Shown here piece after piece: positions 32,109 through 48,983 of a stretch of 64,000 nt of DNA. Under the pieces are notes generated by a model that ran no database searches, was not told the DNA's origin, and saw nothing but the letters and a program-made list of their open reading frames with translations. The stretch is from Truepera sp. (GTDB taxonomy: Bacteria > Deinococcota > Deinococci > Deinococcales > Trueperaceae). A program made the position numbers and the translations under genes. The stretch lies in the NCBI GenBank assembly GCA_965218435.1, contig CBDCKW010000009.1, forward strand, positions 3,424,001 through 3,488,000. The letters are read 5' to 3'. Numbering within the stretch: the stretch's first letter is position 1; each line of letters begins with the position of its first letter.

Positions 32109-33878
32109 TTAGAACCCTGGGGCTACAGGTTCGCTATTTCGATATGCTTCGAACTGCGGATTTCTATCGAACCACTCCGAACGTTTCTGATGCCAAAGGT
32201 TAATCAGACTGGTTCTGCTAACTGTAGACGTTGGATATTTGACTGTAAAGCATCCGGCAGGGAGATCAGCAACGTCCGAGTTAAGCCTATTGATATAGGT
32301 TTGATCGCTGCCTAAGTAGATGACAAGGTTGTTGCGGCAACCAGTTTCGTCAAAAGCATCCCACGATGAGGCATAAGTGGTATTGCCGTTTTTCTCGGTA
32401 TTAATATGACCACTATTTTCCTTCGTTATAAGAAAAACATTATCTTGCAGCGTAAGGCGACAACCTTTTCTAGCGTAGTAGGTAATTGTTCCATCATTCT
32501 TCTTCGTATCCTGATTCCACTTAAAAAGTTGATAGTGTCCAGGCGTGCCTTTAGTCGGGTCTACGTTGGACTCAGTTGCTGTACCGTGTTGCGGCCTGAG
32601 TGCCAGCAAGCTATTTTTGATAGTGAAGGGCACGTTCGCTTCTACAGCCGTAGTCCCTTTGCGGCAGGAGAAACCTGTATAGGCCCAGTCAACGAGAACA
32701 TTGTCCACCACACCGGCGTTAAAAAAGTCGCTTTCGACGGCATCATCACCCGCATGTCTGACATACGAGTCTCTTACCGTCCATCCGCTCGTATCCCTCT
32801 TGATAGCAAAGGCGTCCCCAGTTGTGCCTATAGCAACATTCTCAATTGTGGTATTTTTGCTACCACCAGCACTGAGGTCGCCGAAGTTTGGAACGCCAAC
32901 TAAGATGCCGTTTCGTGCGTGGAACGCCCCATCTTTTGAACATTTCGCTTTTTCTGCATCGGTTGCGTTAAGGTAGCTGCAATCCCAAACGGAGTTGTCC
33001 CCATTAGCAAGATTAGGCGCATAGAACCCACTGGAAAGACATAGATAACCCGCCGGATTTCCAACAATCTCTAGTCCTTGCACCCCACTAAATCTAGACC
33101 CCTTAGCGTTGACACCCGTTTTAGCAGGCTGTCCGGTCAGTTTTTTCCCGGTGTAGGTTTGATTCATCCAGTTCACTATGTTGGTTGAGCCGGTTAGACA
33201 TGATGCTCCGGTAGTCGTTGGTAAGGCATATATAACCTCGAGCGCAGGCTTACTACCAGGCGTTCCCTCGAACGACTCAGCGATGCGGCTGCCCGTGCCT
33301 TCAATCGCAAATGTGAGTGAATCAACTGCACCGTTGTTAATTAGCGGCTGAACCAGCGAGCTCAGGTCGGGCGACTTGACTTCGGGACTCTGAAGCGTCA
33401 TTGTCGTCTTCCATGACGGCACAGCCCAAGAGACGAATGTGTTGGTGAGGGAGCGTGAGGTGATGTCCTTGTTGGTTGTCTTAAAGGTATTCGACGTATA
33501 GCTGCTATGCATCCGAATTGACATCGTTGCAGAGCCGTTACTATCGGCTCTTGGCAAGAAATATAAGTTAGCCGACTTTATAACAGCACCTTTTGGAATA
33601 CCCAAGTTCGTAAATCTAACGCCGACAGCAGTGCTACCACTCGCGTTCGAACCGAGATCGAGGTCGGTGCTATCTAATACCATCGTGCCTGTACTCAACG
33701 TTTCTTCAGCATCGTCGGTGGCTATAGCTATTCTTTGCCACGCTGTTGAGTCTGCTTGGGAGGTAAGTTCAGGTTCCTGAATTCCTGGCGAAGTTTGAAG
33801 ACCGCTACTACACGCCGCTAAGATGAGAATCGCGGAGAATGCGGTGCCTAGAGTAGTTCCATCTTTACGCTTCAACAT
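32109..33878 (-). CDS. Surface lipoprotein: N-terminal beta-sandwich (DDAEE...GVRF..IPKGA.I) plus C-terminal right-handed beta-helix-like domain
   Basis: Lipobox LAAC; WTVRDSYVRHAGDDAVESD, VLVDWAYTGFSCR shared with the neighbouring paralog. Confidence 0.7.
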   Translation of the reverse strand: MLKRKDGTTLGTAFSAILILAACSSGLQTSPGIQEPELTSQADSTAWQRIAIATDDAEETLSTGTMVLDSTDLDLGSNASGSTAVGVRFTNLGIPKGAVIKSANLYFLPRADSNGSATMSIRMHSSYTSNTFKTTNKDITSRSLTNTFVSWAVPSWKTTMTLQSPEVKSPDLSSLVQPLINNGAVDSLTFAIEGTGSRIAESFEGTPGSKPALEVIYALPTTTGASCLTGSTNIVNWMNQTYTGKKLTGQPAKTGVNAKGSRFSGVQGLEIVGNPAGYLCLSSGFYAPNLANGDNSVWDCSYLNATDAEKAKCSKDGAFHARNGILVGVPNFGDLSAGGSKNTTIENVAIGTTGDAFAIKRDTSGWTVRDSYVRHAGDDAVESDFFNAGVVDNVLVDWAYTGFSCRKGTTAVEANVPFTIKNSLLALRPQHGTATESNVDPTKGTPGHYQLFKWNQDTKKNDGTITYYARKGCRLTLQDNVFLITKENSGHINTEKNGNTTYASSWDAFDETGCRNNLVIYLGSDQTYINRLNSDVADLPAGCFTVKYPTSTVSRTSLINLWHQKRSEWFDRNPQFEAYRNSEPVAPGF

Positions 33879-33988
33879 GTTTATCCTCTCAAGTACTCTC
33901 AGCCAAAAGTTATGGAAGACTTTGAGTCTGCTGTCAGCACAACCTGAACATAAGTGAGTGAAGATAAATCAAGCCAACTTGCTGTAGA

Positions 33989-34020
33989 AATCAAGAGGCA
34001 GTATATGCTGCCTCTTGATT
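33989..34020 (-). terminator. 13-bp-stem hairpin between the two lipoprotein genes
   Basis: AATCAAGAGGCAG-N6-CTGCCTCTTGATT. Confidence 0.75.
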
Positions 34021-34037
34021 AATCTCGAGTTTCACGT

Positions 34038-35657
34038 TTAGTTTACTCCTGGCTCCTTCAGGTTCTTGTAGGAGAAAATTTGTGAGTTTCCACTATGCCT
34101 ATCGAACCAAGCCGTGCGTTTCTGCTGCCAGAAGCTAGTTGCGGTAGACCCTTGCACAAGCTTGAAACAGTCTGAACCAAACCTGCTTCTCAAAGCTGCA
34201 AGCCTACTTGCGCTAGTCTTATTATTAGTGTTGTAGTCACCGCTACCTGTATAGACTAGAGTAACATTGCTACACTCGGTGACATAATCAGTTGGGCTCT
34301 GAGTTGATCTGAATACGTCATTGCTGAGTTGCATATAAAAAACGGTGTTTTTGAGACGTAGTTTACAATTGGGCTTGCTATCTTGCTCGAATTTGAACAT
34401 AAAGAGGTGGTTGGGGTTGTTTGGGTTTAACCCTCCAGAAGTACCCACCTGCTTCTTCAGTGCAATTAAGCTGTCCTGAACAGTCACAGTACCGGGAGGA
34501 TTTAGTGACGGATTGCTGTCTCCACGGCATGAAATGCCCATGTATGCCCAGTCCACTAAGACATCATCTATAAGACCATTGTACTTGGGATCGTTTTCTG
34601 CAAAGTCGTCGCCAGCATGTCGAACATACGAATCACGTATAGTCCAATTATTTGCGTTACCTCTATAGCTTTTGAAAGAGAAGGCGTCACCTGTTTGCTG
34701 TATAGCTATATTTTCGAGGATAACGCTGGGCGAATTTACGACTGTGACGGCGAAGTCATTATGATAACCAGGGTCTGCCCATTGGAGGTTATCACTCTCA
34801 CCAGTATCGAATTTTCCTCCCGAAAGGCACAAGTTGGACTTGTTGTCTTGCACGGTGAGAATTGATACGCCTCCATTAGAGTTTGGCCGCACAGTAAAAG
34901 TCTTGCCGGTTGCGCTGACTCGAGCATCAAGGTCTTTGCCTTGAACATAGTATTGTTTACCTGTTGGACTGATGTTATAGATATTGCTCGCGCCTTGTAG
35001 ACAAGAGGTAGAAGGAGGTGGGGGGACATCATAAGTCACAGTCAGCTTAGCAGCGTTGGCGCTGTTACCGTCATAAGAAGAAGCTTTGCGTTGACCAGAG
35101 CCTGCAATAATGAAGGCCATCGCGTTACCTGAAGCCCAGCTTGACTGATTGACCAGTTCTTGCACGACCGACCGAAAGTCAACCGTGCTGTAAGTGTTGC
35201 CACTTGTCCAAGCACCTGGCACCCAGTTGGTTACCGCTGTTGTTTTGGGGCGAGCACTGATCTGCGGATAGCTAGAAGTGAATTCGGGTGCGTTAGCTTC
35301 TTTGTCACCGCGAACAGTCAACGATGTTGACCTAGATGTGTTCGTAACGGCGACGAATTCAAGTTTAGCACCTGTAATGGTTGCACCTTTAGGAATGTTG
35401 ATACCGGTGAAACGAAGCCCTGTTTGTTGAGGTTCGGACTTCTCACCGAGGTCGAGAACTGTGCTGTCGCTATAATAAGGTCCGCTGGACTGCTCTTCTG
35501 CGTCACTAACGGCGTTAGGAACCGTTTTGGTAACTGTAGTAGCTTGGGTAGTCAAAGTAGGCTCTTTGTCTGGAGTATCAGTCTGAAGACCACTACTGCA
35601 CGCCGCTAGGAGAGCCAAAGTTGCCACCAATGAACTAAGTTTCAGCCAAGATTTCAT
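34038..35657 (-). CDS. Surface lipoprotein paralog (same two-domain architecture)
   Basis: Start MKSWLK after AGAAGGG; LAACSSGLQT; WTIRDSYVRHAGDDFAEND, VLVDWAYMGISCR. Confidence 0.72.
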   Translation of the reverse strand: MKSWLKLSSLVATLALLAACSSGLQTDTPDKEPTLTTQATTVTKTVPNAVSDAEEQSSGPYYSDSTVLDLGEKSEPQQTGLRFTGINIPKGATITGAKLEFVAVTNTSRSTSLTVRGDKEANAPEFTSSYPQISARPKTTAVTNWVPGAWTSGNTYSTVDFRSVVQELVNQSSWASGNAMAFIIAGSGQRKASSYDGNSANAAKLTVTYDVPPPPSTSCLQGASNIYNISPTGKQYYVQGKDLDARVSATGKTFTVRPNSNGGVSILTVQDNKSNLCLSGGKFDTGESDNLQWADPGYHNDFAVTVVNSPSVILENIAIQQTGDAFSFKSYRGNANNWTIRDSYVRHAGDDFAENDPKYNGLIDDVLVDWAYMGISCRGDSNPSLNPPGTVTVQDSLIALKKQVGTSGGLNPNNPNHLFMFKFEQDSKPNCKLRLKNTVFYMQLSNDVFRSTQSPTDYVTECSNVTLVYTGSGDYNTNNKTSASRLAALRSRFGSDCFKLVQGSTATSFWQQKRTAWFDRHSGNSQIFSYKNLKEPGVN

Positions 35658-35797
35658 ACTTTCCCTTCTACATTCTTGCCGTAACGCCTGCGGACAACGT
35701 TCGTTTGGCGCGGTTGAGCTGTGAATTGCAAAAACACGCCCCCGATCAGCATTCAAGCTGACCCCGTTAGCAACCTCCTTTTCTACTCAACGAAGCT

Positions 35798-35913
35798 AAG
35801 GTAACAAAGCGAAGTTACATAGTCGTTACTTACCAGCTGGCTGTAGCGCAACTAGTCAGGTAACAAAACGGTAATCACCGGGTAACGCTTTGTTAACGAA
35901 CACCTGCCAAACT
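35798..35913. promoter_or_regulatory. Divergent promoters with 11-bp-phased GTAAC direct repeats
   Basis: + strand GGTAAC/GGTAAT/GGTAAC/GTTAAC at 35859, 35870, 35881, 35892; - strand GTAAC (GTTAC on +) at 35825 and 35814; each array lies 10 nt from a TG-extended -10-like hexamer. Confidence 0.65.
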
Positions 35914-35949
35914 TGTAATCAGCTAGGACAATAAAGAAGGGGTGAACTG

Positions 35950-36102
35950 ATGAGCAAAATAGGTAGGGTTTTGCTAAGTATTTTACTCTTGACGAGCTTG
36001 GGGCTCTCCATGGCCGCAAATTCTAGCAGTTTAGGTGTGGGAAACGGTTCTAATGTACCTAAGCAAAGTCCGATCGTTTCGGTGTCTGCCAAAAGAAATT
36101 AG
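35950..36102 (+). CDS. 50-aa secreted peptide, putative signalling-peptide precursor
   Basis: MSKIGRVLLSILLLTSLGLSMAANSSSLGVGNGSNVPKQSPIVSVSAKRN; SD AAGAAGGGGTG; Sec-type signal; stop overlaps the regulator stop. Confidence 0.65.
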   Translation: MSKIGRVLLSILLLTSLGLSMAANSSSLGVGNGSNVPKQSPIVSVSAKRN

Positions 36103-37829
36103 ATATCGAGTTCTAGCCGGACTCGAGCACGCCTGCCCGCTGCGACACTGCGGCGAGGGTCTTCTGCCGGAAAACGCTGCGTCAGCTCTTCCCACAGTTC
36201 CAGGTCAAAAGGCATGATTTGCGCCAGTTCCCAGATAGCTTCTATATTTCCAGAGTCGGTGACAGCGGTATGAAGTTCGGCTTCTAACAGCCCTCTGAGA
36301 TGAACGATCTCCGGGGCGGTTGACTGCGGGAGCAGGGGACCTCGATACATCTTTATCGCGTCATAAAACTTTCCTTGGCCGAGATAAGTCTCGAGTTCGG
36401 CGACGTCCGACCATACGGATGACATAAGCCGGTACGGGCGCGAGCTTATCTCCACCCCTGCTTCTTTGCGTAGTCGGTGCAACTCGACTCTTAACGATGC
36501 TGTTTGTGATTCTCCGTAGAGTGCTTCACTTAAAGCCTCAGCGTCGTAACCGCTGGGCCGTAGCGCGAGTAAGGTCAGCAGTTCCAGACTGCGGCTTCTA
36601 ACCGTTATAGGGCTGCCTTGGAGATAGAGTTCAGCCCTGCCTAGTGTAAAAAGACGAAGTGAGCGGACGCTCGCAAGCGTAGCTTGTGATTCGCTAAAGG
36701 CTGCTCCGGCCAGTAAACGTATCCCTGTAAGGGTCAGTAAGGTTTTTGCATTGTCTATTGCGGCTCTGATAGATGTTCTGGCACTGTCGTTCTGAAAATC
36801 TAAGGGGTCGAGGTACAAAGCTGACTCTGTTGCCAATAAATTGTTTCTACCCTTGCCGGCAAAAAACTGGTGGGCGCTGAGGAGGTGCCCCACGGCTTCT
36901 TCAGAAGGCCATAGTGAGATGCCTAGGGCTAACCGAGCACGTTGCTGATGATATTCAGAGAGAGAATCCGTCACTGAAAGTGTTGCCTCAGCTTGTCTCT
37001 GCGCCTCTTCCGGCCGGTTCAGCGCATATAGCGCCCTTACATAACCGTGAGTCAGCCAAGACCTCAGAGCCCTGGGAGCTTGCGCAAGTTCCTGCTGGTA
37101 AACCCGTAAGGCGTCGTCATAACGTTCGGTCGCTTGATAAAGGTCTGCTAACGTTGATCTTAGTAGTGCTTTCTGCCGTGAATGAGCTGAGTTGCCCACC
37201 GCTTCGTCGGCTTTTATGAGTTCTTCCTCAAGCCCCTCAAGGCTACCGGTCAAGATTTGCAAGTAGGCTTGGAAGTTGACGATGATCAGCGTCAAGCCCG
37301 GATGCGCTGTTCTGTCCCTCGCAAACTGGAGCCACCCCAAAGCTTTTTTGAAGCTTCCCATATCCGTATAGGCGGTAGCAAGGGCGGCTGCATTTCTGGC
37401 TTCGGCGTAGACGTCGCCTACCTCTTCAGCGGCTATCAAAGAGGCTTGCAGTGCTCGCAAACGAGCCTGAGGATCGGCAGAAGCCAAGCCCAAATGATAC
37501 ATCGTGTGCGCAGTCGCGCGTAACTTGGTCGCCGCTACCGCCTTGCGGTAGTAACCTTCGTCATCCCCCTGGTAGGACTGCAACAGGCCCTCGAGCACGG
37601 TAAGGTCAGCTTTTTCGTCATCACTCACACTAGAAAGTGCGCGGGCAAGGTGTTGACGGGCAAGCATGCTCTGGTCGAGGTTGATAAGCGCCGCTACGAC
37701 ATAAAAAGTTACCCCTTCGGGCCAAGGGGCAGGCAGCTGTCTGCTGAACTCTATAACCTCTTGGTTGAGGCCCCGGGCAAAAAGTTGACGAATAGTTAGG
37801 TAAGCTTTTTGGTCAATAGGCTCTGACAC
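36099..37829 (-). CDS. Transcriptional regulator: TPR-like helical N-terminus plus C-terminal OmpR/SARP-type winged helix and BTAD-like segment
   Basis: LRLFTLGRAEL, SLELLTLLAL.P.G, LSEALYG, SLRVELHRLRK, SDVAEL, YRGPLLP. Confidence 0.75.
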   Translation of the reverse strand: MSEPIDQKAYLTIRQLFARGLNQEVIEFSRQLPAPWPEGVTFYVVAALINLDQSMLARQHLARALSSVSDDEKADLTVLEGLLQSYQGDDEGYYRKAVAATKLRATAHTMYHLGLASADPQARLRALQASLIAAEEVGDVYAEARNAAALATAYTDMGSFKKALGWLQFARDRTAHPGLTLIIVNFQAYLQILTGSLEGLEEELIKADEAVGNSAHSRQKALLRSTLADLYQATERYDDALRVYQQELAQAPRALRSWLTHGYVRALYALNRPEEAQRQAEATLSVTDSLSEYHQQRARLALGISLWPSEEAVGHLLSAHQFFAGKGRNNLLATESALYLDPLDFQNDSARTSIRAAIDNAKTLLTLTGIRLLAGAAFSESQATLASVRSLRLFTLGRAELYLQGSPITVRSRSLELLTLLALRPSGYDAEALSEALYGESQTASLRVELHRLRKEAGVEISSRPYRLMSSVWSDVAELETYLGQGKFYDAIKMYRGPLLPQSTAPEIVHLRGLLEAELHTAVTDSGNIEAIWELAQIMPFDLELWEELTQRFPAEDPRRSVAAGRRARVRLELDI

Positions 37830-38278: not shown

Positions 38279-39238
38279 ATGAAAATGTTGGTTACAGGCG
38301 CGGCAGGATTTATCGGCAGTCACCTAGCTGAGCGGTTAGCGCGGCGTGGCGATACGGTTGTCGGGATAGACAACTTTAACGATTACTACGACCCGGCGCG
38401 TAAACGCCGTAACGCCGAGGCGGTCAGGCAGGCTGGAGTAACAGTTATAGAAGCCGACATCAGGGACCGTGAAAAGATGATGGCGCTGTTTGAACACCAT
38501 CATTTCGACGCCGTAGCGCATATCGCAGCGATGGCGGGCGTGCGTAACTCGGTGGCGAATCCGGCACTCTATATAGACGTCAATCTGGGCGGGACGCAAG
38601 TCCTGATGGACGCCAGCCGCGAGTTCGGCGTGCAGAACTTCGTCTTCGCTTCAACGTCGTCTATTTACGGCGACACGCCGAACATCCCGTTCCAAGAGAC
38701 CGACCCATGCTTGCAGCCGCCGCAACCCTACGCCGCCGCCAAACGCGCCGCCGAACTCCTGGGCTTTACCTATCACAAGCTCTACGGCCTCAACTTTTCG
38801 GCCACGCGGTTTTTTACGGTTTACGGCCCCCGCGGACGGCCCGATATGATGCCGGGGCTCTTAGCCGAAAGCCTCTACTACGGCAAGATGATTCCGCTCT
38901 ATGAAGGCAATATGCGCCGCGACTGGACGTTTGTAGACGACATCGTGTCGGGCGTCGTGCTGGCGCTCGATAAGCCGCTCGGGTACGAGATTTTTAATAT
39001 CGGGCGCGGGGAGCCGCAACCCTTGGCTGACTTTATCGGGGCGATAGAGGCGGTGTCGGGCCGCAGGACGAGGCTCGAGCCCCAACCTAAACTCGCCGCC
39101 GACGTGTACGTCACCTACGCCGACATCGGCAAAGCGCGAAAACTTTTGGGCTTTGAACCCAAAGTCTCGATCCGTGAGGGTATCGAGCGGTTTTGGCGTT
39201 GGTACGAAGACGAGCAGCGTGAATTAACCCCCAGCTGA
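38279..39238 (+). CDS. NDP-sugar epimerase (UDP-glucuronate 4-epimerase-like)
   Basis: VTGAAGFIG, DNFNDYYDP..K, AAMAGVR.S, YAAAK, RFFTVYGP.GRPDM. Confidence 0.88.
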   Translation: MKMLVTGAAGFIGSHLAERLARRGDTVVGIDNFNDYYDPARKRRNAEAVRQAGVTVIEADIRDREKMMALFEHHHFDAVAHIAAMAGVRNSVANPALYIDVNLGGTQVLMDASREFGVQNFVFASTSSIYGDTPNIPFQETDPCLQPPQPYAAAKRAAELLGFTYHKLYGLNFSATRFFTVYGPRGRPDMMPGLLAESLYYGKMIPLYEGNMRRDWTFVDDIVSGVVLALDKPLGYEIFNIGRGEPQPLADFIGAIEAVSGRRTRLEPQPKLAADVYVTYADIGKARKLLGFEPKVSIREGIERFWRWYEDEQRELTPS

Positions 39239-39738
39239 TGCCAATTTCTGACTATATCAAAGATCTGCGTGTATCTATCGGTCACAAACCGCTGCTGACG
39301 CCCGGCGTAGACGCGATAATTCATAGTGACGCCGGACACCTGCTGCTCATCAAACGAAGTGACACCGGGCTCTGGGGCTTGCCGGGGGGACAACTCGATC
39401 CGCTCGAGCCCCCCGCCTTGGGTCTTATCCGTGAGGTTTTTGAAGAGACCGGACTAAAAGTTGTACCCGAGTCGCTGCTCGGCATTTTCGGCGGCAACGA
39501 CGCCTTTCATGTGCGTTATCCCAATGAGGACGAGGTTGACCCTATCGTGTCGCTGTTCGGTTGCCGCGTGGTTGGCGGAGAGTTGCGAAACCGTGACGGT
39601 GAAGCGACTGAAGTAAGGTTTTTTCCGCCGGACGACGTGCCGAGTGAGCTTACGTCCATCACAGGTTATTTGCTGAACTGCTTAGAACAAAATAGCCTTT
39701 TCGAGTGGGACGAACGCTGGCTGGATACGCTCAGCTGA
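39238..39738 (+). CDS. NUDIX hydrolase, paralog 1
   Basis: PGG....E......IREVFEETGL Nudix box. Confidence 0.88.
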   Translation: MPISDYIKDLRVSIGHKPLLTPGVDAIIHSDAGHLLLIKRSDTGLWGLPGGQLDPLEPPALGLIREVFEETGLKVVPESLLGIFGGNDAFHVRYPNEDEVDPIVSLFGCRVVGGELRNRDGEATEVRFFPPDDVPSELTSITGYLLNCLEQNSLFEWDERWLDTLS

Positions 39739-40226
39739 TGCCGATTTCTGAGTACCTTGAGGGACTCCGGGCACGGATTGGGCATGACTTGGTGCTCAAC
39801 CCTTCGGTTGCTGCCATCATCCGTGACGAAGCTGGAAACGTGCTTATTCATCAGCGTAGCGATAACCAAAAATGGGAAATTCCTGCTGGAGCCGTTGACC
39901 CTGATGAAGCGCCCGCGCAGGCCGTGGTGCGAGAAGTTTTTGAGGAGACGGGGCTCAAGGTTCGGCCGCTACATGTCGTTGGCGTATTTAGTGGAAACAC
40001 GGTCACGCATCCAAATGGCGATAAAACCCAGCCGCACTGCACCTTATTCGAGTGCGAAACCCTAGGTGGGACGCTCGAGGCCCGTGACGGTGAGGCTTTA
40101 GCCTTTAGGTACGTCTCTCCTGCTGAGGTGCCGAGGCAGTTTGACTCGCCGCCGAATATCTTTGAGGCCGACTTTACCGGAACATATTTCGCCTGGGATG
40201 AACGCTGGTTAGAGACGCTCGAGTAA
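39738..40226 (+). CDS. NUDIX hydrolase, paralog 2
   Basis: Start MPISEY overlaps the upstream TGA; VREVFEETGL; shared WDERWL C-terminus. Confidence 0.88.
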   Translation: MPISEYLEGLRARIGHDLVLNPSVAAIIRDEAGNVLIHQRSDNQKWEIPAGAVDPDEAPAQAVVREVFEETGLKVRPLHVVGVFSGNTVTHPNGDKTQPHCTLFECETLGGTLEARDGEALAFRYVSPAEVPRQFDSPPNIFEADFTGTYFAWDERWLETLE

Positions 40227-40446
40227 TCTCGAGGCTTTGCCCAAGGTGTCTATAAATAGATAGGCTACGCCGGACATAACAGATTTTCTAGCGAAACAGT
40301 TTATGAGGGTGACGAGCCTAAGTAACATATCAAATCTCAGTATGAGCTGCGCCGTGGCTGACCCTTCACGCCGTGCGTGCCGCAGAGTAAAAAAAGCCCC
40401 TCACCCCGAAGTTATCCCGAACCGCTACCCAAACCCCCTACTTGTG

Positions 40447-40455
40447 TGCTACACT
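40447..40455 (+). promoter_or_regulatory. Extended -10 promoter TGcTACACT
   Basis: 6 nt upstream of the 5' end of the structured element. Confidence 0.55.
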
Positions 40456-40461
40456 CAAATA

Positions 40462-40641
40462 AGACGAGTTGAAAGGGAGCGTGAAAGTTTCAAGACAGCC
40501 CTAAAGTGTGAGTAGACCAAGTGAAGCCAAGTTGGTTTCGGGAGGCGCAAACTCTCGCGTAAAGGTTGTGGAGAAGCAAAAGCCACAAAGGGACTGGATA
40601 CCAGGTAGAAACCTATAAAACTTGGCACAACCCCTTCGTCT
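40462..40641 (+). ncRNA. Candidate structured ncRNA / riboswitch-like leader, about 180 nt, family not recognised
   Basis: Paired ends AGACGA/TCGTCT and GTTG/CAAC; GCCAAGTT/AACTTGGC and GGTTTC/GAAACC close a junction of three hairpins. Confidence 0.55.
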
Positions 40642-40710
40642 GCCCTTGTTTTTCTACAATATACGAACTCATACCCGGTTTTTCAGGGTGTCGTCCGAGA
40701 ACGTATCGTT

Positions 40711-41442
40711 ATGGCAGGCTCATATCTAGCAGAGAGCCCGGTCGCGGAGAAATATCAGCCGCAGTACCGGGTGGTGCAAGTCGGCGCAGAACACGGTCAA
40801 AGTATTCACGAAGTGGTGTGTTACGCCAACAAATTTCCGGTAGGCACCAAAGGGTGCATCAGTCAGAACAATATTGAAGAGATTATTCGACGTTTTCCCG
40901 AGGGACAGTTTGTGGTTGTTACTGACACTGCTGAAGGGGAGAAGGTTGTCGGCCTGGCCCTCGCCATGAGGACAGCTTATCCGCCGTCGGCGCGGCCTCT
41001 AGGGTGGCTCGAGATGATCGGCGACCTCGGCTTTTCTAAGCATGACCCTAAAGGTGCATGGCTTTACGGGGTTGAAAAAGCGGTCCATCCTGACCACCAA
41101 GGGCGCGGCGTGGCGTCGGCACTCTATAAGGCGCAGTTCGCGCTTGCCGAGCAGCTCAAACTCAAGGGGATGTACGCGGGCGGGATGCTTAAAGGCTACG
41201 AAGCGTACCGTGACCGCTTGTCAGTCCGTGAATACGCGGGCCGGGTGATGCGCGGCGAGGTCTTCGACCCGACGGTGAGTATGCAGATGCGGCGCGGTTT
41301 CAGGCCCTGTACGGTGATTGAAAACTACGCCTGGGACCGGCAAGCTGACCACACCGGGATGCTGATCGTCTGGGAGCGGCCCGAGTTGGCGAGCCCGGAG
41401 CTGATTTCCGATAGCTTAGCCTTAACGCGTTTGCAGCGGTAA
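40711..41442 (+). CDS. GNAT-family acetyltransferase
   Basis: FPEGQFV, HDP.G.WLYG.E..VHPD..GRG, YAGRV..GE.FDPT. Confidence 0.8.
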   Translation: MAGSYLAESPVAEKYQPQYRVVQVGAEHGQSIHEVVCYANKFPVGTKGCISQNNIEEIIRRFPEGQFVVVTDTAEGEKVVGLALAMRTAYPPSARPLGWLEMIGDLGFSKHDPKGAWLYGVEKAVHPDHQGRGVASALYKAQFALAEQLKLKGMYAGGMLKGYEAYRDRLSVREYAGRVMRGEVFDPTVSMQMRRGFRPCTVIENYAWDRQADHTGMLIVWERPELASPELISDSLALTRLQR

Positions 41443-41468: not shown

Positions 41469-42758
41469 ATGAACGTTTTAGTGCTCGGGGCAGGGATGGC
41501 AGGACTGGCGGCGGCTAGGGCGCTGCAAGACGCCGGTCAGCAGGTCAGCGTGTTAGAGGCCAAACACCGGCTCGGTGGTCGCGTCTATACCAATCACAAC
41601 TTTGCTGAAGTGCCCGTCGAGTTCGGCGCGGAGTTCATCCACGGTGAAGGGGCTGTAACGTGGGCGCTGGTACGTGAGCTGGGTTTAGAAACGGTCCACT
41701 GGAACAAACTGGACGATTCGTTGGTGAGGTTAGAGGACGGTGCGTGGCTGACGATGCAGGAAGCTAGAGCTGATTATCCCGACTTCGACCAGACCCGTTC
41801 GTGGAGCCTGCCCGACGTAGACGCGCTGCCCAGCGAAGACTGGGGGGGTTACCTCCGACGCATTGGCTTTAATCATCAGCAACTTCGTTACGCCGAACGC
41901 TCGTTTGCCAACGCGTGCGGCGAAGCAATGCGTTTTTTAAGCGCCGAGGCGGTGCTCGAGGGGCTCCGGGCTGAAGACGAAGGCGGCAGGGATTACCGGA
42001 TTCTGGGTGGGTATGACGCCCTCGTCAATGCTTTAGCTAAAGGTCTCGACATCTACAGTGATGATCCGGTCAATGAACTGATGTGGGGCGCAGATGGTGT
42101 GCGCGCTTTGACGCTCGGCGGTGAAGTTTACGAAGCGGACGCCGCCGTGATTACTGTACCGCTCGGCGTGCTCCAAGCCGACGCAATTCGCTTTTCCCCG
42201 GCACTTCCCGACAACAAACGCTCGGCGCTCTTGGGTCTGCGAATGGGGCCGGTGATTAAGCTTGTTTACAGCTTTGAGGACGCGCCGCTCGACCCTAGCA
42301 TCATGGCCGTGTACAGCCGCCTCAACCCGCCGATGTGGTGGTCGCCGTCTTATGGGTATAAGACCAACGCGCACGTCTGGACAGCGTTCGCTTCCGGAGA
42401 CTGGGCCGCCGAACTGCTCGCTTTGGGTGAAGAGGGGGCGCTTGAAGCGGGGCTCGAGTCCCTCCGTCAAGAGCTAGACAGCCCTGATTTAACCGCAAAG
42501 GCGGCGCGGCTCATCAACTGGCCTGATGACCCTTACGCACGTGGCGGCTATTCGTTCGTGTTGCCGGGACAGACGGGCGCACGCGAAAACCTAGCAGCGC
42601 CCACGCCACCACTTTTTTGGGCGGGCGAAGCGACGGCACCTGAACCCCAGGCCGCGACGGTTCACGGGGCGCTCTTAAGTGGGCGGCGGGCGGCAAGTGA
42701 AGTGCTGAACTACGAAAAAGCCGCGTCAGCTGCTGAGATGAAGTCAGAGGTAGCTTAG
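41469..42758 (+). CDS. Flavin-containing amine oxidase (MAO/PAO family)
   Basis: GAGMAGLAAA, EA..RLGGRV, GAEFIHG, TVPLGVL, W..DPYARGGYS, AGEAT, TVHGALLSGRRAA. Confidence 0.9.
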   Translation: MNVLVLGAGMAGLAAARALQDAGQQVSVLEAKHRLGGRVYTNHNFAEVPVEFGAEFIHGEGAVTWALVRELGLETVHWNKLDDSLVRLEDGAWLTMQEARADYPDFDQTRSWSLPDVDALPSEDWGGYLRRIGFNHQQLRYAERSFANACGEAMRFLSAEAVLEGLRAEDEGGRDYRILGGYDALVNALAKGLDIYSDDPVNELMWGADGVRALTLGGEVYEADAAVITVPLGVLQADAIRFSPALPDNKRSALLGLRMGPVIKLVYSFEDAPLDPSIMAVYSRLNPPMWWSPSYGYKTNAHVWTAFASGDWAAELLALGEEGALEAGLESLRQELDSPDLTAKAARLINWPDDPYARGGYSFVLPGQTGARENLAAPTPPLFWAGEATAPEPQAATVHGALLSGRRAASEVLNYEKAASAAEMKSEVA

Positions 42759-42762
42759 CTCT

Positions 42763-43503
42763 ATGAAAGCTGTCGGCCTCGTACAAGAAATTAATCTCTA
42801 CCCGGTGAAGTCGATGCGGGGCGTCTCTGTCGCCCACGCAGAACTCTACTGGTACGGCCTAAACGGTGACCGTAAGTACGCCTTTGTGCGTTCCGACGTG
42901 CGTTCGGGGTTTCCGTGGTTGACTGCGAGAGAGTTGCCCGACATTTTACGGTATAAACCCCGGTTTCTTACGCCGGACGAACCGATGACTTCGGACGTTG
43001 ACGTTTGCACACCTTCCGGGCAAGCTTTACCGCTCGAGTCAGGGCAGTTAGGGCAGTCCCTCACGTCTAGCTACGGTGCGCCTGTCTCGCTCTTGCATCT
43101 CAACCGGGGCACCTACGACTGTATGCCTGTTTCGCTCATCACTGACGCAACGTTTGCGAGTATTCAAAGCAGTTTGAATGAGCCTTTAGACCGCCGCCGC
43201 TTCCGGTCTAACCTCGTGATTCAAATAGATGCTGACACAGCTACCGGTGGAGAACCTGAAAAAGCGTGGCTCGGCGCGCTTCTTACGTTTGGCGAACGCC
43301 CGGATTCTGCACGTATAAATATCAACTACCAAATCAAGCGGTGCGTCACGGTCAACTTGGAGCCTGACAGTGGGGAGAATAGTCCCAAAGTTTTGAAAAC
43401 TGTTGCCGAAAACTTTCAAGCGTGTGCGGGCGTTTACGGCGCGGTCTCGAGGCCGGGAACGATTAAGCTTGGAGATACGGTTTATCTGGAGCATCATGCG
43501 TAA
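42763..43503 (+). CDS. MOSC-domain protein (YcbX/mARC-like)
   Basis: YPVKSMRG, GDR, RRFRSNLV, RC, GVYG.V..PG.I..GD. Confidence 0.88.
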   Translation: MKAVGLVQEINLYPVKSMRGVSVAHAELYWYGLNGDRKYAFVRSDVRSGFPWLTARELPDILRYKPRFLTPDEPMTSDVDVCTPSGQALPLESGQLGQSLTSSYGAPVSLLHLNRGTYDCMPVSLITDATFASIQSSLNEPLDRRRFRSNLVIQIDADTATGGEPEKAWLGALLTFGERPDSARININYQIKRCVTVNLEPDSGENSPKVLKTVAENFQACAGVYGAVSRPGTIKLGDTVYLEHHA

Positions 43504-43546
43504 AGCAGTCGCGGCAAAAGCCAACAGTTCAGCGAAAGAAGGTCCT

Positions 43547-44821
43547 ATGGTTACGCAGCATTTGTCCCCCGTCTGGTCACACCTGACCACCTTCGAGCCG
43601 GTCAGAGGCGAAGGTATTTACCTTTATGACGCAGCAGAGAACCGGCTGACCGACTTCACCTCGGGTATCGGCGTCACCAACGCGGGGCACGCGCACCCTC
43701 GAGTCGTCAAGGCGATTCAAGCGCAAGCTGAGGCGCTGATCTTTGCTCAGATCAACTGTGTGGTATCCCCTACAGCAGCTGAGCTGGCCGACCTCCTAGA
43801 CCGTATTACGCCCGAAACGGTGGACACCTTCTTTTTCTCCAACAGTGGCGCGGAAGCCGTCGAAGGCGCGGTCAAACTGGCGCGGCATGCGACCGGACGA
43901 AACAATCTCATCGTCTTTCAAGGCGGTTTTCACGGACGAACGGCGCAGGCGATGGCGATGACAACGGCGAAAACGGGCTACCGGCACCGTTACGGGCCAC
44001 TTCCGGCGGGCGTCTTCGCGGCACCGTTTCCTTATAACTATCAGTACGGTTGGAGTGAGGCGGAGACGGTAGACTTCTGCCTCAAACAGTTGGAGCTCGT
44101 GTTCAAAACCCAAACTGCCCCGGATGAAACAGCGGCGGTGTTCCTCGAGCCCGTCCTCGGTGAAGGCGGCTATGTTCCGGCTCCGGCAGCATTTTTGCAA
44201 GCTTTACGAGAAGTTTGCGACGCGCACGGTATCTTGCTCGTTTTGGACGAAGTGCAGACCGGCTTTGGACGTACCGGCAAGCTGTTCGCGTTTGAACACG
44301 CGGGCGTGACGCCGGACATCTTAGTGATGGCGAAGGGTCTAGGCGGCGGGTTGCCGATCAGTGCGGTGGGCGGGGGCCACGCCCTGATGGAACGTTGGGA
44401 GTCAGGGACGCACGGCGGGACTTACGGCGGTGGCAGCGCGGTAGTGCTGGCGGGTGCGAAAGCCAACGTAGAGGTAATTTTAGACGAACGGCTCGCTGAG
44501 AATGCAGCGGTGAGGGGCGAACAGCTGACTCGAGGTTTACGTGAGTTACAGCGGCGTTTTCCAGTGATCGGTGAGGTGCGCGGGCCGGGGCTGATGGTAG
44601 CGACGGAATTTACCGATACTCACGGACAGCCTGACAAAGAAACGTGCAAGCGGGTTCAAAAAGCGTGTTTAGCGTCAGGGTTGATGCTTTTAACGTGCGG
44701 CCCATTTGAAAACGTCATCCGCTGGATTCCGCCTTTGGTCGTAACCGAGGCGCAGATTGACGAGGCGTTGGGAACTTTTGCGGGGGCGCTCGAGGCCACT
44801 ACTCAACCTGTACCTGCTTAG
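43547..44821 (+). CDS. Class III aminotransferase (4-aminobutyrate aminotransferase-like)
   Basis: DFTSGIGV, NSGAEAVE, FHGRT, EPVLGEGGY, DEVQTGFGRTG, AKG; start MVTQHL. Confidence 0.9.
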   Translation: MVTQHLSPVWSHLTTFEPVRGEGIYLYDAAENRLTDFTSGIGVTNAGHAHPRVVKAIQAQAEALIFAQINCVVSPTAAELADLLDRITPETVDTFFFSNSGAEAVEGAVKLARHATGRNNLIVFQGGFHGRTAQAMAMTTAKTGYRHRYGPLPAGVFAAPFPYNYQYGWSEAETVDFCLKQLELVFKTQTAPDETAAVFLEPVLGEGGYVPAPAAFLQALREVCDAHGILLVLDEVQTGFGRTGKLFAFEHAGVTPDILVMAKGLGGGLPISAVGGGHALMERWESGTHGGTYGGGSAVVLAGAKANVEVILDERLAENAAVRGEQLTRGLRELQRRFPVIGEVRGPGLMVATEFTDTHGQPDKETCKRVQKACLASGLMLLTCGPFENVIRWIPPLVVTEAQIDEALGTFAGALEATTQPVPA

Positions 44822-44830
44822 GAGTGAGCT

Positions 44831-45196
44831 ATGATTCAAAAGATCAATTTAGCGGACAAATTTGCGTCGTTCAGCGATCAGTGGTCGCCTAGGGTTATCG
44901 GTGAAGTGAACGACGCGGCGGTTAAGTTAGCCAAACTTGAAGGCACCTTTGAGTGGCATCAGCACGCGCAAGAAGACGAGCTGTTTATGGTCGTCAAGGG
45001 TCAACTGGTTATCAAATTGCGCAATCAGGACGACATCATGCTGAACGAAGGTGAATGTGTGATCATTCCCAGGGGCGTCGAGCATCTTCCCGTTGCAGAA
45101 AAAGAAGCGCATGTACTTCTTTTTGAACCCAAAACAACGCTTAACACGGGCAATGTCGAGAGCGAACGCACCGTGCATGAATTAGAAAGGCTCTGA
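44831..45196 (+). CDS. Cupin-domain protein
   Basis: WSPR, F.WHQH..EDELF, PRGVEH.P. Confidence 0.85.
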   Translation: MIQKINLADKFASFSDQWSPRVIGEVNDAAVKLAKLEGTFEWHQHAQEDELFMVVKGQLVIKLRNQDDIMLNEGECVIIPRGVEHLPVAEKEAHVLLFEPKTTLNTGNVESERTVHELERL

Positions 45197-46542
45197 TGGC
45201 TGTCATCAGTCTCAAAACTGACATCCCCGGCCCGAAATCTTTGGCACTCGTCGCCCGCCGCGAAACTTCGACGCCGAGGGGCGCAGCCAAGCTGACACCG
45301 CTCGCCTTTACGCACGCGCGAGGCGCGGCTATCACAGACGCTGACGGCAACACGCTCTTAGACTTCGCGGGCGGCATCGGGATGCTGGCCGTCGGGCACA
45401 ACCACCCCCAGGTCGTCGCTGCGATCAAAGCCCAAGCCGATCAACTCATCCACCCGTGCGCCATTGTCGGAAGTTATGAGCCTTATGTCGCGCTGGCCGA
45501 AAAACTGACTGAGATTGTGCCTATCTCCGGCGCAAAGAAGGCGATTTTACTCAATAGTGGTGCGGAAGCTGTTGAAACCGCCGTAAAAATCGCCAGAGCA
45601 CACACCGGACGTGCTGGCATCGTCGTCTTTGAGGGTGCGTATCACGGACGCACCAACTTGACCCTCGCCATGACGAGCAAATACGGGCTTTTCAAAAAGG
45701 GCTTTGGGCCGTTTGCGCCGGAAGTGTACCGGTTGCCCTTTCCAAACGTCTACCGCCGCCCTGCAGGAATGAGTGAAGATTCGTTCTTAAATTACGCCGT
45801 CGGTGAGCTCGAGCACGCCATGACCGCGCAGATTGACCCTTCCGCGATTGCGGCGTTTGTGCTCGAGCCCGTTCAGGGTGAAGGCGGCTTTGTGCCGATT
45901 TCAGGGCGGTTTTACCGGCGTATCCGCGAACTCTGCGACGCGCACGGTATCGTCTTGGTCGCTGATGAGATTCAGTGCGGGATGGGACGTACCGGCAAGC
46001 TGTTCGCCTCGGAGCATTACGGCGTCGAGCCCGACCTCATCACGGCAGCGAAGTCGCTCGCCGCAGGGATGCCGATTTCAGCGGTCGTCGGCAAGGCGGA
46101 CATTATGGACGCGCCGCATCCGGGGGGCTTGGGCGGAACCTACAGCGGCAACCCGCTCGCGTGTGCGGCGGCGTTGGCGGCGGTAGACATCATCTCCGAC
46201 CCGGATTTTCTAGCTCGAGCAACCGAACTCGGGGAGCAGCTCGAGACCCACCTCAAAGCCTTTCAACGTGAGTTTCCAGCGATTGCCGACGTACGCGGAC
46301 TGGGGCCGATGTTGGCGCTCGAGTTCGCTCAAGATGGTGTTCCTGACCCGGAGACAACGGCGAACGTCATCGGTGAGGCGTTAAAACGCGGTTTGATTGT
46401 CTTACGCGCCGGGTTGTACAGCAACTGTTTGCGCTTTTTGCCGCCGCTGAATTTGACGGACGCTGAGCTGGACGAAGGTATGGATGTGCTGTACGAGGCG
46501 CTCACTGCGGTGTTGGCTCGAGAGGTCGTTGCCGGTGACTGA
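45196..46542 (+). CDS. gabT: 4-Aminobutyrate/5-aminovalerate aminotransferase
   Basis: DFAGGIG, NSGAEAVE, KKGFGPF.PEVYR, EPVQGEGGF, AKSLAAGMP, GGLGGTY.GNP. Confidence 0.88.
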   Translation: MAVISLKTDIPGPKSLALVARRETSTPRGAAKLTPLAFTHARGAAITDADGNTLLDFAGGIGMLAVGHNHPQVVAAIKAQADQLIHPCAIVGSYEPYVALAEKLTEIVPISGAKKAILLNSGAEAVETAVKIARAHTGRAGIVVFEGAYHGRTNLTLAMTSKYGLFKKGFGPFAPEVYRLPFPNVYRRPAGMSEDSFLNYAVGELEHAMTAQIDPSAIAAFVLEPVQGEGGFVPISGRFYRRIRELCDAHGIVLVADEIQCGMGRTGKLFASEHYGVEPDLITAAKSLAAGMPISAVVGKADIMDAPHPGGLGGTYSGNPLACAAALAAVDIISDPDFLARATELGEQLETHLKAFQREFPAIADVRGLGPMLALEFAQDGVPDPETTANVIGEALKRGLIVLRAGLYSNCLRFLPPLNLTDAELDEGMDVLYEALTAVLAREVVAGD

Positions 46543-47983
46543 ATTTGCACAAGCTGACTTTAAGCAGCTCATCGGCGGGTCGTGGACGGGTGCGTACGGC
46601 GACGGCACTTGGGATTTGCTCGACCCGGCGACTGAAAAATGTATCCAACAGGTGCCGTTCGGGGGCAAAGCCGACGCTGAGGCTGCCGTAAACGCGGCAG
46701 CTGAAGCGTTTACAGCCTGGTCACGCAAAACACCTTACGAACGCGGCGCGGTCTTAATGCAGGCGGCGGCGTGGCTTCGTCCCCTTGCCGATGACCTAGC
46801 CCGTATCACCACCGAAGAATCGGGGAAACCGCTGGCTGAGTCGAAAGCAGAATGGGTGAGCGCGTGCGGGTATCTCGAGTGGTTCGCCGCTGAAGGCGTC
46901 CGCGCGTATGGGCGCGTGATTCCAGCTCGAGTGGCGACGCGGCGCATCGAAGTGATTTACCAACCGCTCGGTGTGGTCGGGACGATTACGGCGTGGAACT
47001 TTCCGGTCTATAACCTCGTGCGGAGCTGGGCGTCGGCGCTCGCGGCGGGCTGCACGGTGGTCGGGCGGCCTTCGGAGTACACGCCGCGTTCGGGGATGCT
47101 GTTGGCGCGTGCTTTGGTCGAGGGCGGCGCACCGGCAGGCGTGATCAACGTCGTCAACGGTGACCCGGCTGAGGTTGCAGGCGTAATGATGCAAGACGCG
47201 CGGGTTCGCAAAGTCGCGTTTACCGGCAGTCCGCGCGTCGGCAAACTGCTGATGGACCAAGCGAGCGAGACGGTGACGCGGTTGTCGCTCGAGCTTGGCG
47301 GCAACGCGCCGGTCTTGGTCTTTGACGATGTAGACATAGAGCAAGCCGCCAAACTGTCCGTAACCTGGAAGACGCGCAACTGCGGGCAGGTTTGTGTGTC
47401 ACCGCAGCGGTTTTATGTCCATGAAGGTATCTACGAAGCGTTTGCGAAACGGGCGAAGGAGCACATGGCGGCGCTTAAGGTTGGGCATGGGCTAGACGAA
47501 GGAACACAGGTTGGGCCGCTGATTAACCAAACGCAACTCGAGCGGGTGGAAGATTTAGTCTCGAGGAGTATAGACGCTGGCGCGAAGCTCGAGACCGGCG
47601 GCCTCCGCAAAGAGGGCCAAGGTTACTTCTACGAACCGACGGTACTGAGCCACGTTGCACCCGGTATCCCTGCGCACAACGAAGAGATTTTTGGCCCGGT
47701 GATGCCTTTAATCTCCTTCGGCAGCACAGATGAAGCCCTGAAACTGGCGAACAGCACCGAGTATGGTCTGGCTGCGTTTGTCCTGACAAATGACCTCAAT
47801 ACCAGTATTTTGGTGAGTGAAGGGCTCCAAGCTGGCATGGTCTGTATCAATGATTGGCTGCCCGCGACGCCCGAAGCGCCTTTCGGCGGCGTCAAAGGGA
47901 GCGGGTTTGGCCGTGAAACCGGGAGTGAAGGATTGCTGGAATACCTCGAGACCAAAACTATCTTTACCGGCGGGGTGGTGTAA
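46535..47983 (+). CDS. gabD: NAD(P)-dependent succinate-semialdehyde dehydrogenase-like aldehyde dehydrogenase
   Basis: WNFP, FTGS..VGK.LM, SLELGGNAP, RNCGQVC, EEIFGP, PFGGVKGSG.GRE; GTG start inferred. Confidence 0.85.
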   Translation: MTEFAQADFKQLIGGSWTGAYGDGTWDLLDPATEKCIQQVPFGGKADAEAAVNAAAEAFTAWSRKTPYERGAVLMQAAAWLRPLADDLARITTEESGKPLAESKAEWVSACGYLEWFAAEGVRAYGRVIPARVATRRIEVIYQPLGVVGTITAWNFPVYNLVRSWASALAAGCTVVGRPSEYTPRSGMLLARALVEGGAPAGVINVVNGDPAEVAGVMMQDARVRKVAFTGSPRVGKLLMDQASETVTRLSLELGGNAPVLVFDDVDIEQAAKLSVTWKTRNCGQVCVSPQRFYVHEGIYEAFAKRAKEHMAALKVGHGLDEGTQVGPLINQTQLERVEDLVSRSIDAGAKLETGGLRKEGQGYFYEPTVLSHVAPGIPAHNEEIFGPVMPLISFGSTDEALKLANSTEYGLAAFVLTNDLNTSILVSEGLQAGMVCINDWLPATPEAPFGGVKGSGFGRETGSEGLLEYLETKTIFTGGVV

Positions 47984-48023
47984 CCATACAAAAAGGCTAG
48001 GCGTCCATCCGGTAAACTCGCGC

Positions 48024-48983
48024 ATGAGCGTTTTACTTTTAGGCTTTGGCGAAGACAACTTTAACGACGAACAAAAAGCGGCGATTCGTGAGGCGGCAGG
48101 GGGGCTCGAGCCGTTTTACAGCACCGACAAAGCCGAGATAGAGGGGCGGCTTGACGACATCGAAGTAGCCGCAGGAAGTTTTCCTCGAGACCTGATGGCG
48201 CGGGCGTCCAACCTGAGATGGTATCAGCAGTGGGGCGCGGGCGCGGATTGGCTCTTAAAATATCCTGAGCTGACCCAAAAAGACTTCACGCTGACCAACG
48301 TTTCGGGCATTCACGAAATCCCTATCGGTGAGCAGATTATGGCGTATCTGCTGATGTTTGCTCGCGGCTTTCCCCAAATGATGCGGGCACAGCTGGCGAC
48401 AACTTGGGCTCAGAACGAGAGTAAAACCTTTGAACTCGCTGAAAAAACGATGCTGGTTTTGGGCACAGGGGCCATCGGCACGTACACTGCGAAACTTGCT
48501 GAAGCGTTTGGTATCAAGGTTGTCGGTGTACGGCGCAACCCAGGAAAGCAAGTTGAACATATCAGTGAAATGGTCGCACTAGATGATCTGCACACGGCAC
48601 TACCTGACGCGGATTTTATCGTCCTGACGTTGCCACTGACCAACGACACGCGCCACCTCATCGGTGAGGCCGAACTGCAGGCGATGAAACCCACGGCGAT
48701 TTTAGTCAACATCGGGCGCGGTGGGCTGATTGACGAATTTGCGTTGGTGCAGGCGCTTCAAGAGGGCAGGCTAGCCGGGGCCGGGTTAGATGTGTTTGAA
48801 ACGGAGCCTTTGCCCAAAGATTCGCCGCTATGGACGATGGAAAACGTCATTATCACGCCGCATATGGCGGGGAATACACCGCACTATGACGAGCGGGCCT
48901 TGGAGATTTTTCTCGAGAATTTGCGCCGCTATACCGCGGGCGAATCGCTGACGCACGTGGTAGACAAGCAAGCCGGCTACTGA
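48024..48983 (+). CDS. D-2-hydroxyacid dehydrogenase
   Basis: GTGAIG, LPLT.DT, VNIGRG, LDVFETEPLP, TPH; start MSVLLL. Confidence 0.9.
   Translation: MSVLLLGFGEDNFNDEQKAAIREAAGGLEPFYSTDKAEIEGRLDDIEVAAGSFPRDLMARASNLRWYQQWGAGADWLLKYPELTQKDFTLTNVSGIHEIPIGEQIMAYLLMFARGFPQMMRAQLATTWAQNESKTFELAEKTMLVLGTGAIGTYTAKLAEAFGIKVVGVRRNPGKQVEHISEMVALDDLHTALPDADFIVLTLPLTNDTRHLIGEAELQAMKPTAILVNIGRGGLIDEFALVQALQEGRLAGAGLDVFETEPLPKDSPLWTMENVIITPHMAGNTPHYDERALEIFLENLRRYTAGESLTHVVDKQAGY

Follow-up and report, generated by a model that had tools for sequence, protein, structure and literature searches.

Background

The question raised by this locus is whether the DNA ahead of a putative amine-catabolic operon in Truepera sp. 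encodes a structured RNA and, if so, what kind of RNA it is. A sequence-only reading of the window (the whole stretch of 64,000 nucleotides analysed here) had proposed an unrecognised RNA of about 180 nucleotides, with paired ends and a long inner helix closing a junction of three hairpins, acting either as a riboswitch or as a stand-alone non-coding RNA. The complementary pairs, the three hairpins, the two purine and two pyrimidine 5-mers and the -10 element that it listed are all present in the sequence, each in its place. Our comparison with homologues suggests that the leader is very probably a real cis-acting RNA with two states, and that its conserved structure is a different one from that junction.

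Conservation and distribution of the leader

The promoter and the extent of the leader are as follows.

40447..40455, + strand: extended -10 element (TGn-TAnnnT type), matched by a regular expression in 63 of 63 elements, 27-32 nt before an invariant GGAG
40461..40713, + strand: whole leader RNA (predicted switch), from the predicted start to the start codon of the GNAT gene

Transcription probably starts at about 40461, as placed from the -10 element; a sigma-70 scan, which requires a -35, did not call the extended -10 at 40447-55. The leader comprises about 250 bases. It is thus longer than the 180 nucleotides first proposed, as the conserved pairings extend to the start codon at 40711.

By blastn, 30 of 60 Trueperaceae genomes have the element and none of 40 others from the order does, which is conservation far beyond chance. 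We then have a covariance model of the element core, built from 30 sequences, and searches with strict filters that scored 25-38 candidates per genome, so that distant relatives can be missed; these recovered the element in 33/60 Trueperaceae genomes, as a single copy in each (one copy in the Truepera sp. source genome), and again in 0/40 others of the order. In a sample of the phylum, searched with the same filters, it was found in 8 of 12 Trueperaceae genomes and in none of 138 others. Beyond the phylum the scope is that of exact patterns and nine GNAT loci. An exact 19-base pattern had 60 matches over 185,579 species genomes, six of them without the 5' motif: one is a truncation at a contig start (41 bits with the model), and the other five, in other taxa and with the remainder of the element absent, are chance matches. 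A metagenome scan added 50 further loci; among the 49 listed, 45 run into a GNAT gene and four have at most 250 nt downstream. The leader RNA is apparently undescribed and, in the genomes searched, apparently restricted to one family, the Trueperaceae.

The fold of the Truepera sp. leader taken by itself is marginal (z -1.93 with 8/200 shuffles as good for the 264 nt of 40447-40710; z -0.69 with 46/200 for the 196 nt of 40455-40650), and the case rests on the homologues. One genome, G035, has a degenerate copy (L161:10200-11041) in which the lower arm and T-loop segment are retained and the apical part is lost; it lies about 690 nt from the GNAT gene, with an AT-rich insert between.

Operon and genomic context

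The genes downstream of the leader are the following.

40711..41442, + strand: GNAT-family acetyltransferase (PF00583), the first gene predicted to be regulated
41469..42758, + strand: flavin amine oxidase (PF01593)
42763..48983, + strand: rest of the operon, namely a MOSC protein, class-III aminotransferase, cupin, GABA transaminase, aldehyde dehydrogenase and 2-hydroxyacid dehydrogenase

The GNAT gene lies directly 3' of 61 of the 63 distinct elements, the other two being at contig ends, and the flavin amine oxidase is the second gene at 56 of the 63 loci, the other seven having no more than 1166 nt downstream. Class-III aminotransferases, the GABA transaminase and the aldehyde dehydrogenase are often found further downstream; in Truepera sp. 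the ORF at 45196-46542 is over the cut-off for TIGR00700. The best solved relatives of the amine oxidase are LSD1/LSD2, spermine oxidase and N1-acetylpolyamine oxidase; the GNAT is not explained by any relative, solved or named. The genes 5' of the element vary, while the GNAT and the oxidase are constant. A divergent potB-like permease is upstream at 42 of 60 loci, and close by, annotated relatives have potD, potA (over the TIGR01187 cut-off), a GNAT paralogue and a C45 hydrolase, to which G008 adds a carbon-nitrogen hydrolase. From this gene content we infer a locus for polyamine uptake and breakdown. The proposal of a structured RNA ahead of an amine (polyamine) catabolic operon is thus supported by both conservation and context. 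In Truepera sp. the transport cluster lies about 42 kb further upstream, a little beyond the window, and the RNA has remained with the GNAT gene.

Several other features of the neighbourhood can be recorded here. The potD, potA, C45 hydrolase and paralogous GNAT genes at L168:8456-12451 (C9 3418455-3422450) form a second polyamine cluster without the element, whose potD appears to begin right after a -10 motif and may be leaderless. Two tandem NUDIX paralogues precede the promoter at 39238-40226 of the window, where most relatives have the divergent potB. On the minus strand, 32109-37829 holds a tandem pair of paralogous lipoprotein-like ORFs of 570-590 aa, preceded by a 576-aa ORF that by eye resembles a TPR-containing transcriptional activator.

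A GNAT orthologue (best E < 1e-45) is present in 35 of the 60 Trueperaceae genomes. The RNA is present in 33 of these and missing from two, G012 and G046; in none of the 60 does it occur without the orthologue, and in G043 the element and the GNAT gene are at the ends of different contigs. The GNAT genes of G012 and G046 (L158:4731-5453 and L159:1455-2177) share another short conserved stretch before the start codon. Upstream of GNAT relatives from Chloroflexota and other phyla the element is absent (nine loci scanned with the model; 22 of 25 GNAT loci compared by eye). Several Anaerolineae homologues (L095-L101) share a different, highly conserved sequence about 230 nt upstream, with a GC-rich hairpin near the start; it is not matched by the covariance model and may be another regulatory element or reflect mere close kinship.

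We also considered whether the operon could replace a missing panD, with CoA or pantothenate as the OFF ligand. No panD gene was found in Truepera sp. or among the 60 Trueperaceae genomes, and panC is found in only 1/60, so that there is no de novo pantothenate route to feed, and this beta-alanine/CoA idea was rejected. As most Deinococcus/Thermus-type relatives have both genes, the Trueperaceae look like pantothenate auxotrophs.

Two mutually exclusive folds

The homologues keep two mutually exclusive sets of predicted base pairs, which we call fold A and fold B. The strands involved are these.

40462..40467, + strand: 5' strand of P1 (fold A), pairs with 40636-40641; extended by 40473-77 with 40632-36
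40476..40486, + strand: invariant 5' motif with a T-loop-like GUGARA (invariant columns)
40487..40491, + strand: 5' strand of P2 (fold A), pairs with 40573-40577; alternatively a local hairpin with 40476-80
40494..40502, + strand: switch strand; in fold A 40495-500 with 40564-69 (P3), in fold B with 40685-92 near the AUG (B2)
40502..40513, + strand: second switch strand; in fold A with 40551-61 (P4), in fold B 40506-13 with 40667-74 (B1)
40517..40545, + strand: apical arm of fold A, with a CC/GG pair, a purine-rich internal loop and a hairpin that varies (40523-28/40534-39); 40539-44 pairs with 40552-57 in fold B
40558..40577, + strand: closes the arm from the 3' side in fold A, and in fold B supplies the 5' half of B3, a long hairpin whose other half is 40649-65
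40578..40631, + strand: variable, lineage-specific stem region, which holds the non-conserved helices of the sequence-only reading
40642..40674, + strand: pyrimidine-rich invading strands of fold B; candidate Rho loading site (a Rho gene is in the genome)
40673..40720, + strand: predicted expression platform, a hairpin up to or over the AUG, with no Shine-Dalgarno (strand-swap test 0/2000)

The helix that joins the ends of the element in fold A (P1, 40462-67/40636-41) had been proposed from the single sequence, and it is borne out by covariation across homologues. The P1 hexamer types match their own partner exactly in 31/42, 10/16 and 6/8 sequences. When traced over a tree of 60 GNAT proteins, one P1 pair switches back and forth between G-C and A-U, with seven parsimony steps on each side, and is paired in 57/60; this result is biased upwards because the 3' anchor was picked by the best cognate fit. 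The interior of the earlier model fared differently. The long inner helix (40526-33/40619-26) is specific to this genome, as just one of the 78 elements tested has anything equivalent, and the hairpin TTGTGG/CCACAA is found in 4 of 93, so the three-hairpin junction cannot be taken as the conserved structure. In its place fold A has an irregular arm in which 94.9-96.2% of cells are paired, against 29-55% with slid partners, and which has more two-sided cells (14 and 6) than shuffles do (4.5 and 2.0). Within it, the six P3 pairs are 100% paired, with variants to G-U only.

The 40476-86 motif is the main conserved block that pairing in both folds does not explain, which makes it a candidate recognition site; its GUGARA segment we take to be T-loop-like after the FMN and cobalamin riboswitches. 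Such a site might be read by a protein. The GNAT itself, or a polyamine-sensing factor, could bind fold A through the invariant motif and repress translation until released by polyamine. The shortness of the invariant 5' block would suit this, as would the single copy per genome, linked to one gene: in the loci scanned no copy lies before potD or the GNAT paralogue, and the four potD upstream regions that we compared by eye have no common motif. A single copy at one gene also fits the pattern of protein-bound autoregulatory leaders, and among the 109 ORFs scanned no dedicated regulator gene was seen beside the operon. Protein gating is a serious rival, which we nevertheless consider less likely than a small-molecule effector. 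The GNAT has no RNA-binding domain that we could find, and CsrA was not found in the Truepera sp. genome, so that a CsrA site is not supported. The two genomes with the GNAT gene but without the RNA (G012, G046) neither require nor exclude a protein.

In fold B the downstream pyrimidine strands are predicted to invade the arm. The long hairpin B3 takes in the partner of P1, and is also part of the minimum free energy structure of 40447-40710. Among the aligned pairs of fold B, which come from B1, the base of B3 and a short hairpin, 96% are paired, compared with 26-67% when slid; two-sided changes are not above those of shuffles (29 and 248 of 500). In strand-swap tests the cognate strands did better for P1 (4 of 2000), P2 (32) and B2, B3 and the AUG hairpin (0 each), with weak results for P4 (75/2000) and B1 (167/2000) and P3 too invariant to be assessed in this way; as the sequences are related, the pairing and swap counts are inflated and are not probabilities. 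Two local changes concern the switch strands: a G-to-A change in the L029/L061 clade, in the second switch strand, preserves both P4 and B1 pairing, and L094 has one A-U to G-C double change in B2. One-sided changes mostly yield G-U when read on the + strand, which favours an RNA over a DNA operator. Two further sequences depart from the common pattern. At L160:6824-6929 (G024) the same U-to-C change is found in both alternative partners against an unaltered switch strand, so that either fold contains an A-C mismatch, and L176:1342-1760 (G026) has another codon, probably UUG, in place of the conserved AUG, with the preceding hairpin kept.

Pairing of the Shine-Dalgarno type is found in one of 61 leaders, compared with 497 of 1169 long ORFs in the Truepera sp. 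genome. Two kinds of attenuator were considered and are not supported. The leader has no conserved short upstream frame that could serve as a uORF or leader peptide, since the spacings of the blocks fall in all three frames and the peptides from the conserved GTG differ; and in Truepera sp., where 40200-40800 was scanned, there are no terminator-like sites at which an intrinsic terminator could act.

Predicted switching and the proposed mechanism

Equilibrium folding of truncated transcripts of the 61 full leaders suggests an order of events. P3 is dominant in 61/61 just after the arm has been made, in 53 before the pyrimidine tract, in 33 after the B1 partner and in 13 at the AUG. The constrained ensemble energies of the two folds are near-equal (means of -90.9 kcal/mol for A and -91.1 for B). 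Opening the AUG region from -6 to +12 costs 8.4 in fold A and 5.2 in fold B, with B lower in 54/61, because B2 engages one strand of the hairpin lying over the start; in Truepera sp. the cost barely differs (11.0 for A, 10.3 for B). When only B1 is enforced the AUG accessibilities are 0.31 and 0.35, with B higher in 38/61, and a clear difference between A and B requires an enforced B2, taken from each sequence's own best duplex.

The leader thus lies 5' of a consistent set of genes, has a conserved structured 5' domain, and has a platform with an alternative, mutually exclusive fold, the last by comparative and computed evidence that is weak in Truepera sp. itself. We regard it as a strong riboswitch candidate in which both states are supported by comparison. 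Our preferred reading, to which we give a probability of roughly 0.45, is that it would act as a translational riboswitch-like switch, with a small-molecule effector that holds fold A (OFF) and so represses the operon. Fold A would be the irregular arm that folds early and leaves the hairpin over the AUG in place. Without the effector, the downstream strands would displace the arm to give fold B, the start codon would be freed and the operon would be ON; fold B would be the default unless the effector holds fold A. An early-folding domain held by an effector, set against a default downstream fold, is ordinary riboswitch logic. That the leader is transcribed and that its effector is a small molecule, as well as the identity of the effector, we infer.

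If A is OFF and B the ON default, the effector should be a repressing signal. It would report that polyamine breakdown is not needed, and glutamine (as a sign of nitrogen sufficiency) or the pathway product GABA are the candidates that we favour. The repressing direction and the effector are the weakest step of the model. Catabolic genes are usually induced by their substrate, and for an operon of that kind an OFF switch is less to be expected. For that reason, and because the locus joins pot uptake to catabolism in one cluster, the same two-fold switch might work in the opposite sense, with spermidine, putrescine or an N-acetylpolyamine binding fold B, or speeding the displacement of A by B, to turn the operon ON. 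The near-equal energies mean that modest binding could tip the balance, and fold B has a multiway junction of its own. This is a serious rival that we find less likely, as fold B requires the entire leader and is mostly plain helix, while the loop-rich domain that folds first is A, the core of which is retained in the degenerate copy of G035. That the compact state which folds first would be the OFF state also argues against a simple scheme in which polyamine binds an aptamer and the operon is switched on. Most of the invariant bases can be put down to their having two partners, and so need not form a ligand pocket.

The OFF state may reach beyond the first gene. The pyrimidine strands at 40642-74 have an unpaired fraction of 0.45 in fold A and 0.16 in fold B, and with Rho present, Rho-dependent polarity on the tract exposed in fold A could spread OFF to the downstream genes. 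The greater exposure in A, the Rho gene and the weak AUG gating in Truepera sp. would equally suit a switch that acts mainly on transcription, through Rho loading in fold A, or on RNA decay, the AUG hairpin being incidental. This seems to us improbable, given that B2 and the AUG hairpin covary and persist across long insertions and that no intrinsic terminator was found. Under our preferred reading, polarity would add to translational control.

Comparison with known RNA families

As the sequence-only reading had supposed for the families that it named, the leader matches no Rfam family. A search with Rfam 15 gave no hits in the window at the gathering score. With E allowed up to 10, 40200-40760 and two homologues had none either, and a third homologue, L021, had a minus-strand hammerhead fragment (11 bits, E 8.9), which is at chance level. 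The families without a match include SAM-I, ldcC, lysine, FMN, T-box, c-di-AMP, 6S, SRP and raiA. For the cobalamin riboswitch, both a match to RF00174 and B12-related genes are lacking at the locus. A true cobalamin riboswitch, scoring above the Rfam cut-off, is found elsewhere in the genome (L116, C9:2215526-2215675), with a weaker partial one at C9:178645-178730.

The RNA might still be a stand-alone non-coding RNA, for example 6S-like, that adjoins the operon, or a cobalamin riboswitch that has drifted. Its ends pair, the Truepera sp. genome (rated 100% complete) has no Rfam 6S match, and the T-loop segment resembles by eye that of the genome's own cobalamin riboswitch. By eye, the apparent likeness to RF00174 comprises the T-loop-like GUGARA segment and an internal loop, rich in purines, that has CC/GG on its flanks; the helices are connected differently, however, no B12 genes lie downstream, and there is no model match either way. 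With 150 of 253 candidates scored, the cobalamin model is silent on the leader at E up to 10; the new model misses the cobalamin loci of the genome, and the Rfam cmscan is blank, so that covariance searches support neither a 6S RNA nor a cobalamin variant. No copy is found without a GNAT orthologue. Of the two roles first proposed, that of a riboswitch is the best reading, while a stand-alone RNA is not supported, because the downstream gene is invariant and the pairings reach the AUG, with no terminator; we regard the stand-alone and cobalamin explanations as very improbable.

In translational OFF riboswitches of the TPP, FMN, cobalamin and lysine types, a domain that folds early is in competition with a platform further downstream, by which the initiation site is hidden. 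The Trueperaceae leader is like these in setting a 5', early-folding domain against a downstream platform. It differs in having no Rfam match and no Shine-Dalgarno and in preceding catabolic genes, and its whole arm appears to refold, rather than one switching strand.

Among RNAs of polyamine genes, the spermidine riboswitch is described in PMC10853860 as a SAM-I variant that acts as an OFF switch by transcription termination on biosynthetic genes, and the ldcC motif in PMC5737381 as a SAM-I variant with a polyamine gene context. As far as these descriptions go, the Trueperaceae RNA shares the polyamine gene context and, under our preferred reading, the OFF logic, but it matches neither SAM-I nor ldcC, lacks a terminator and precedes acetyltransferase and oxidase genes. 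PMC8632094 describes the potE motif of Veillonella, before an antiporter and with no obvious expression platform, and the odc1 motif, a uORF-type element before ornithine decarboxylase. Both are, like ours, candidate RNA elements ahead of polyamine genes, and these descriptions set them apart from it. In openly searchable full texts we found no paper that combines Trueperaceae with riboswitch, and nothing on the element in literature listings; the main texts of PMC11109978 and bioRxiv 10.64898/2026.10.21.760802 mention no Truepera, Deinococcus or polyamines, and their supplements could list the motif.

Significance

New riboswitch classes are rare finds. We give an even chance to the view that the Trueperaceae leader is one, with a fold of its own and the first over polyamine breakdown, which would directly sense a polyamine or an amine/nitrogen metabolite, refold the whole leader and gate a start without a Shine-Dalgarno. 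Its narrow range, one family in the genomes searched, limits its general impact. As described in PMC10853860, the validated polyamine riboswitch shuts off biosynthesis; the Trueperaceae RNA differs in architecture and would lie on the breakdown side. If our reading is right, this would be a case of RNA control of a start site that has no Shine-Dalgarno.

The finding also bears on the enzymes of the family. Mammals pair SSAT with N1-acetylpolyamine oxidase, and in the Trueperaceae the GNAT gene adjoins a flavin oxidase related to spermine and N1-acetylpolyamine oxidases, an analogy that extends to the enzymes only, with low identity and putative substrates. The locus thereby points to a putative bacterial acetyltransferase-oxidase route of polyamine breakdown.
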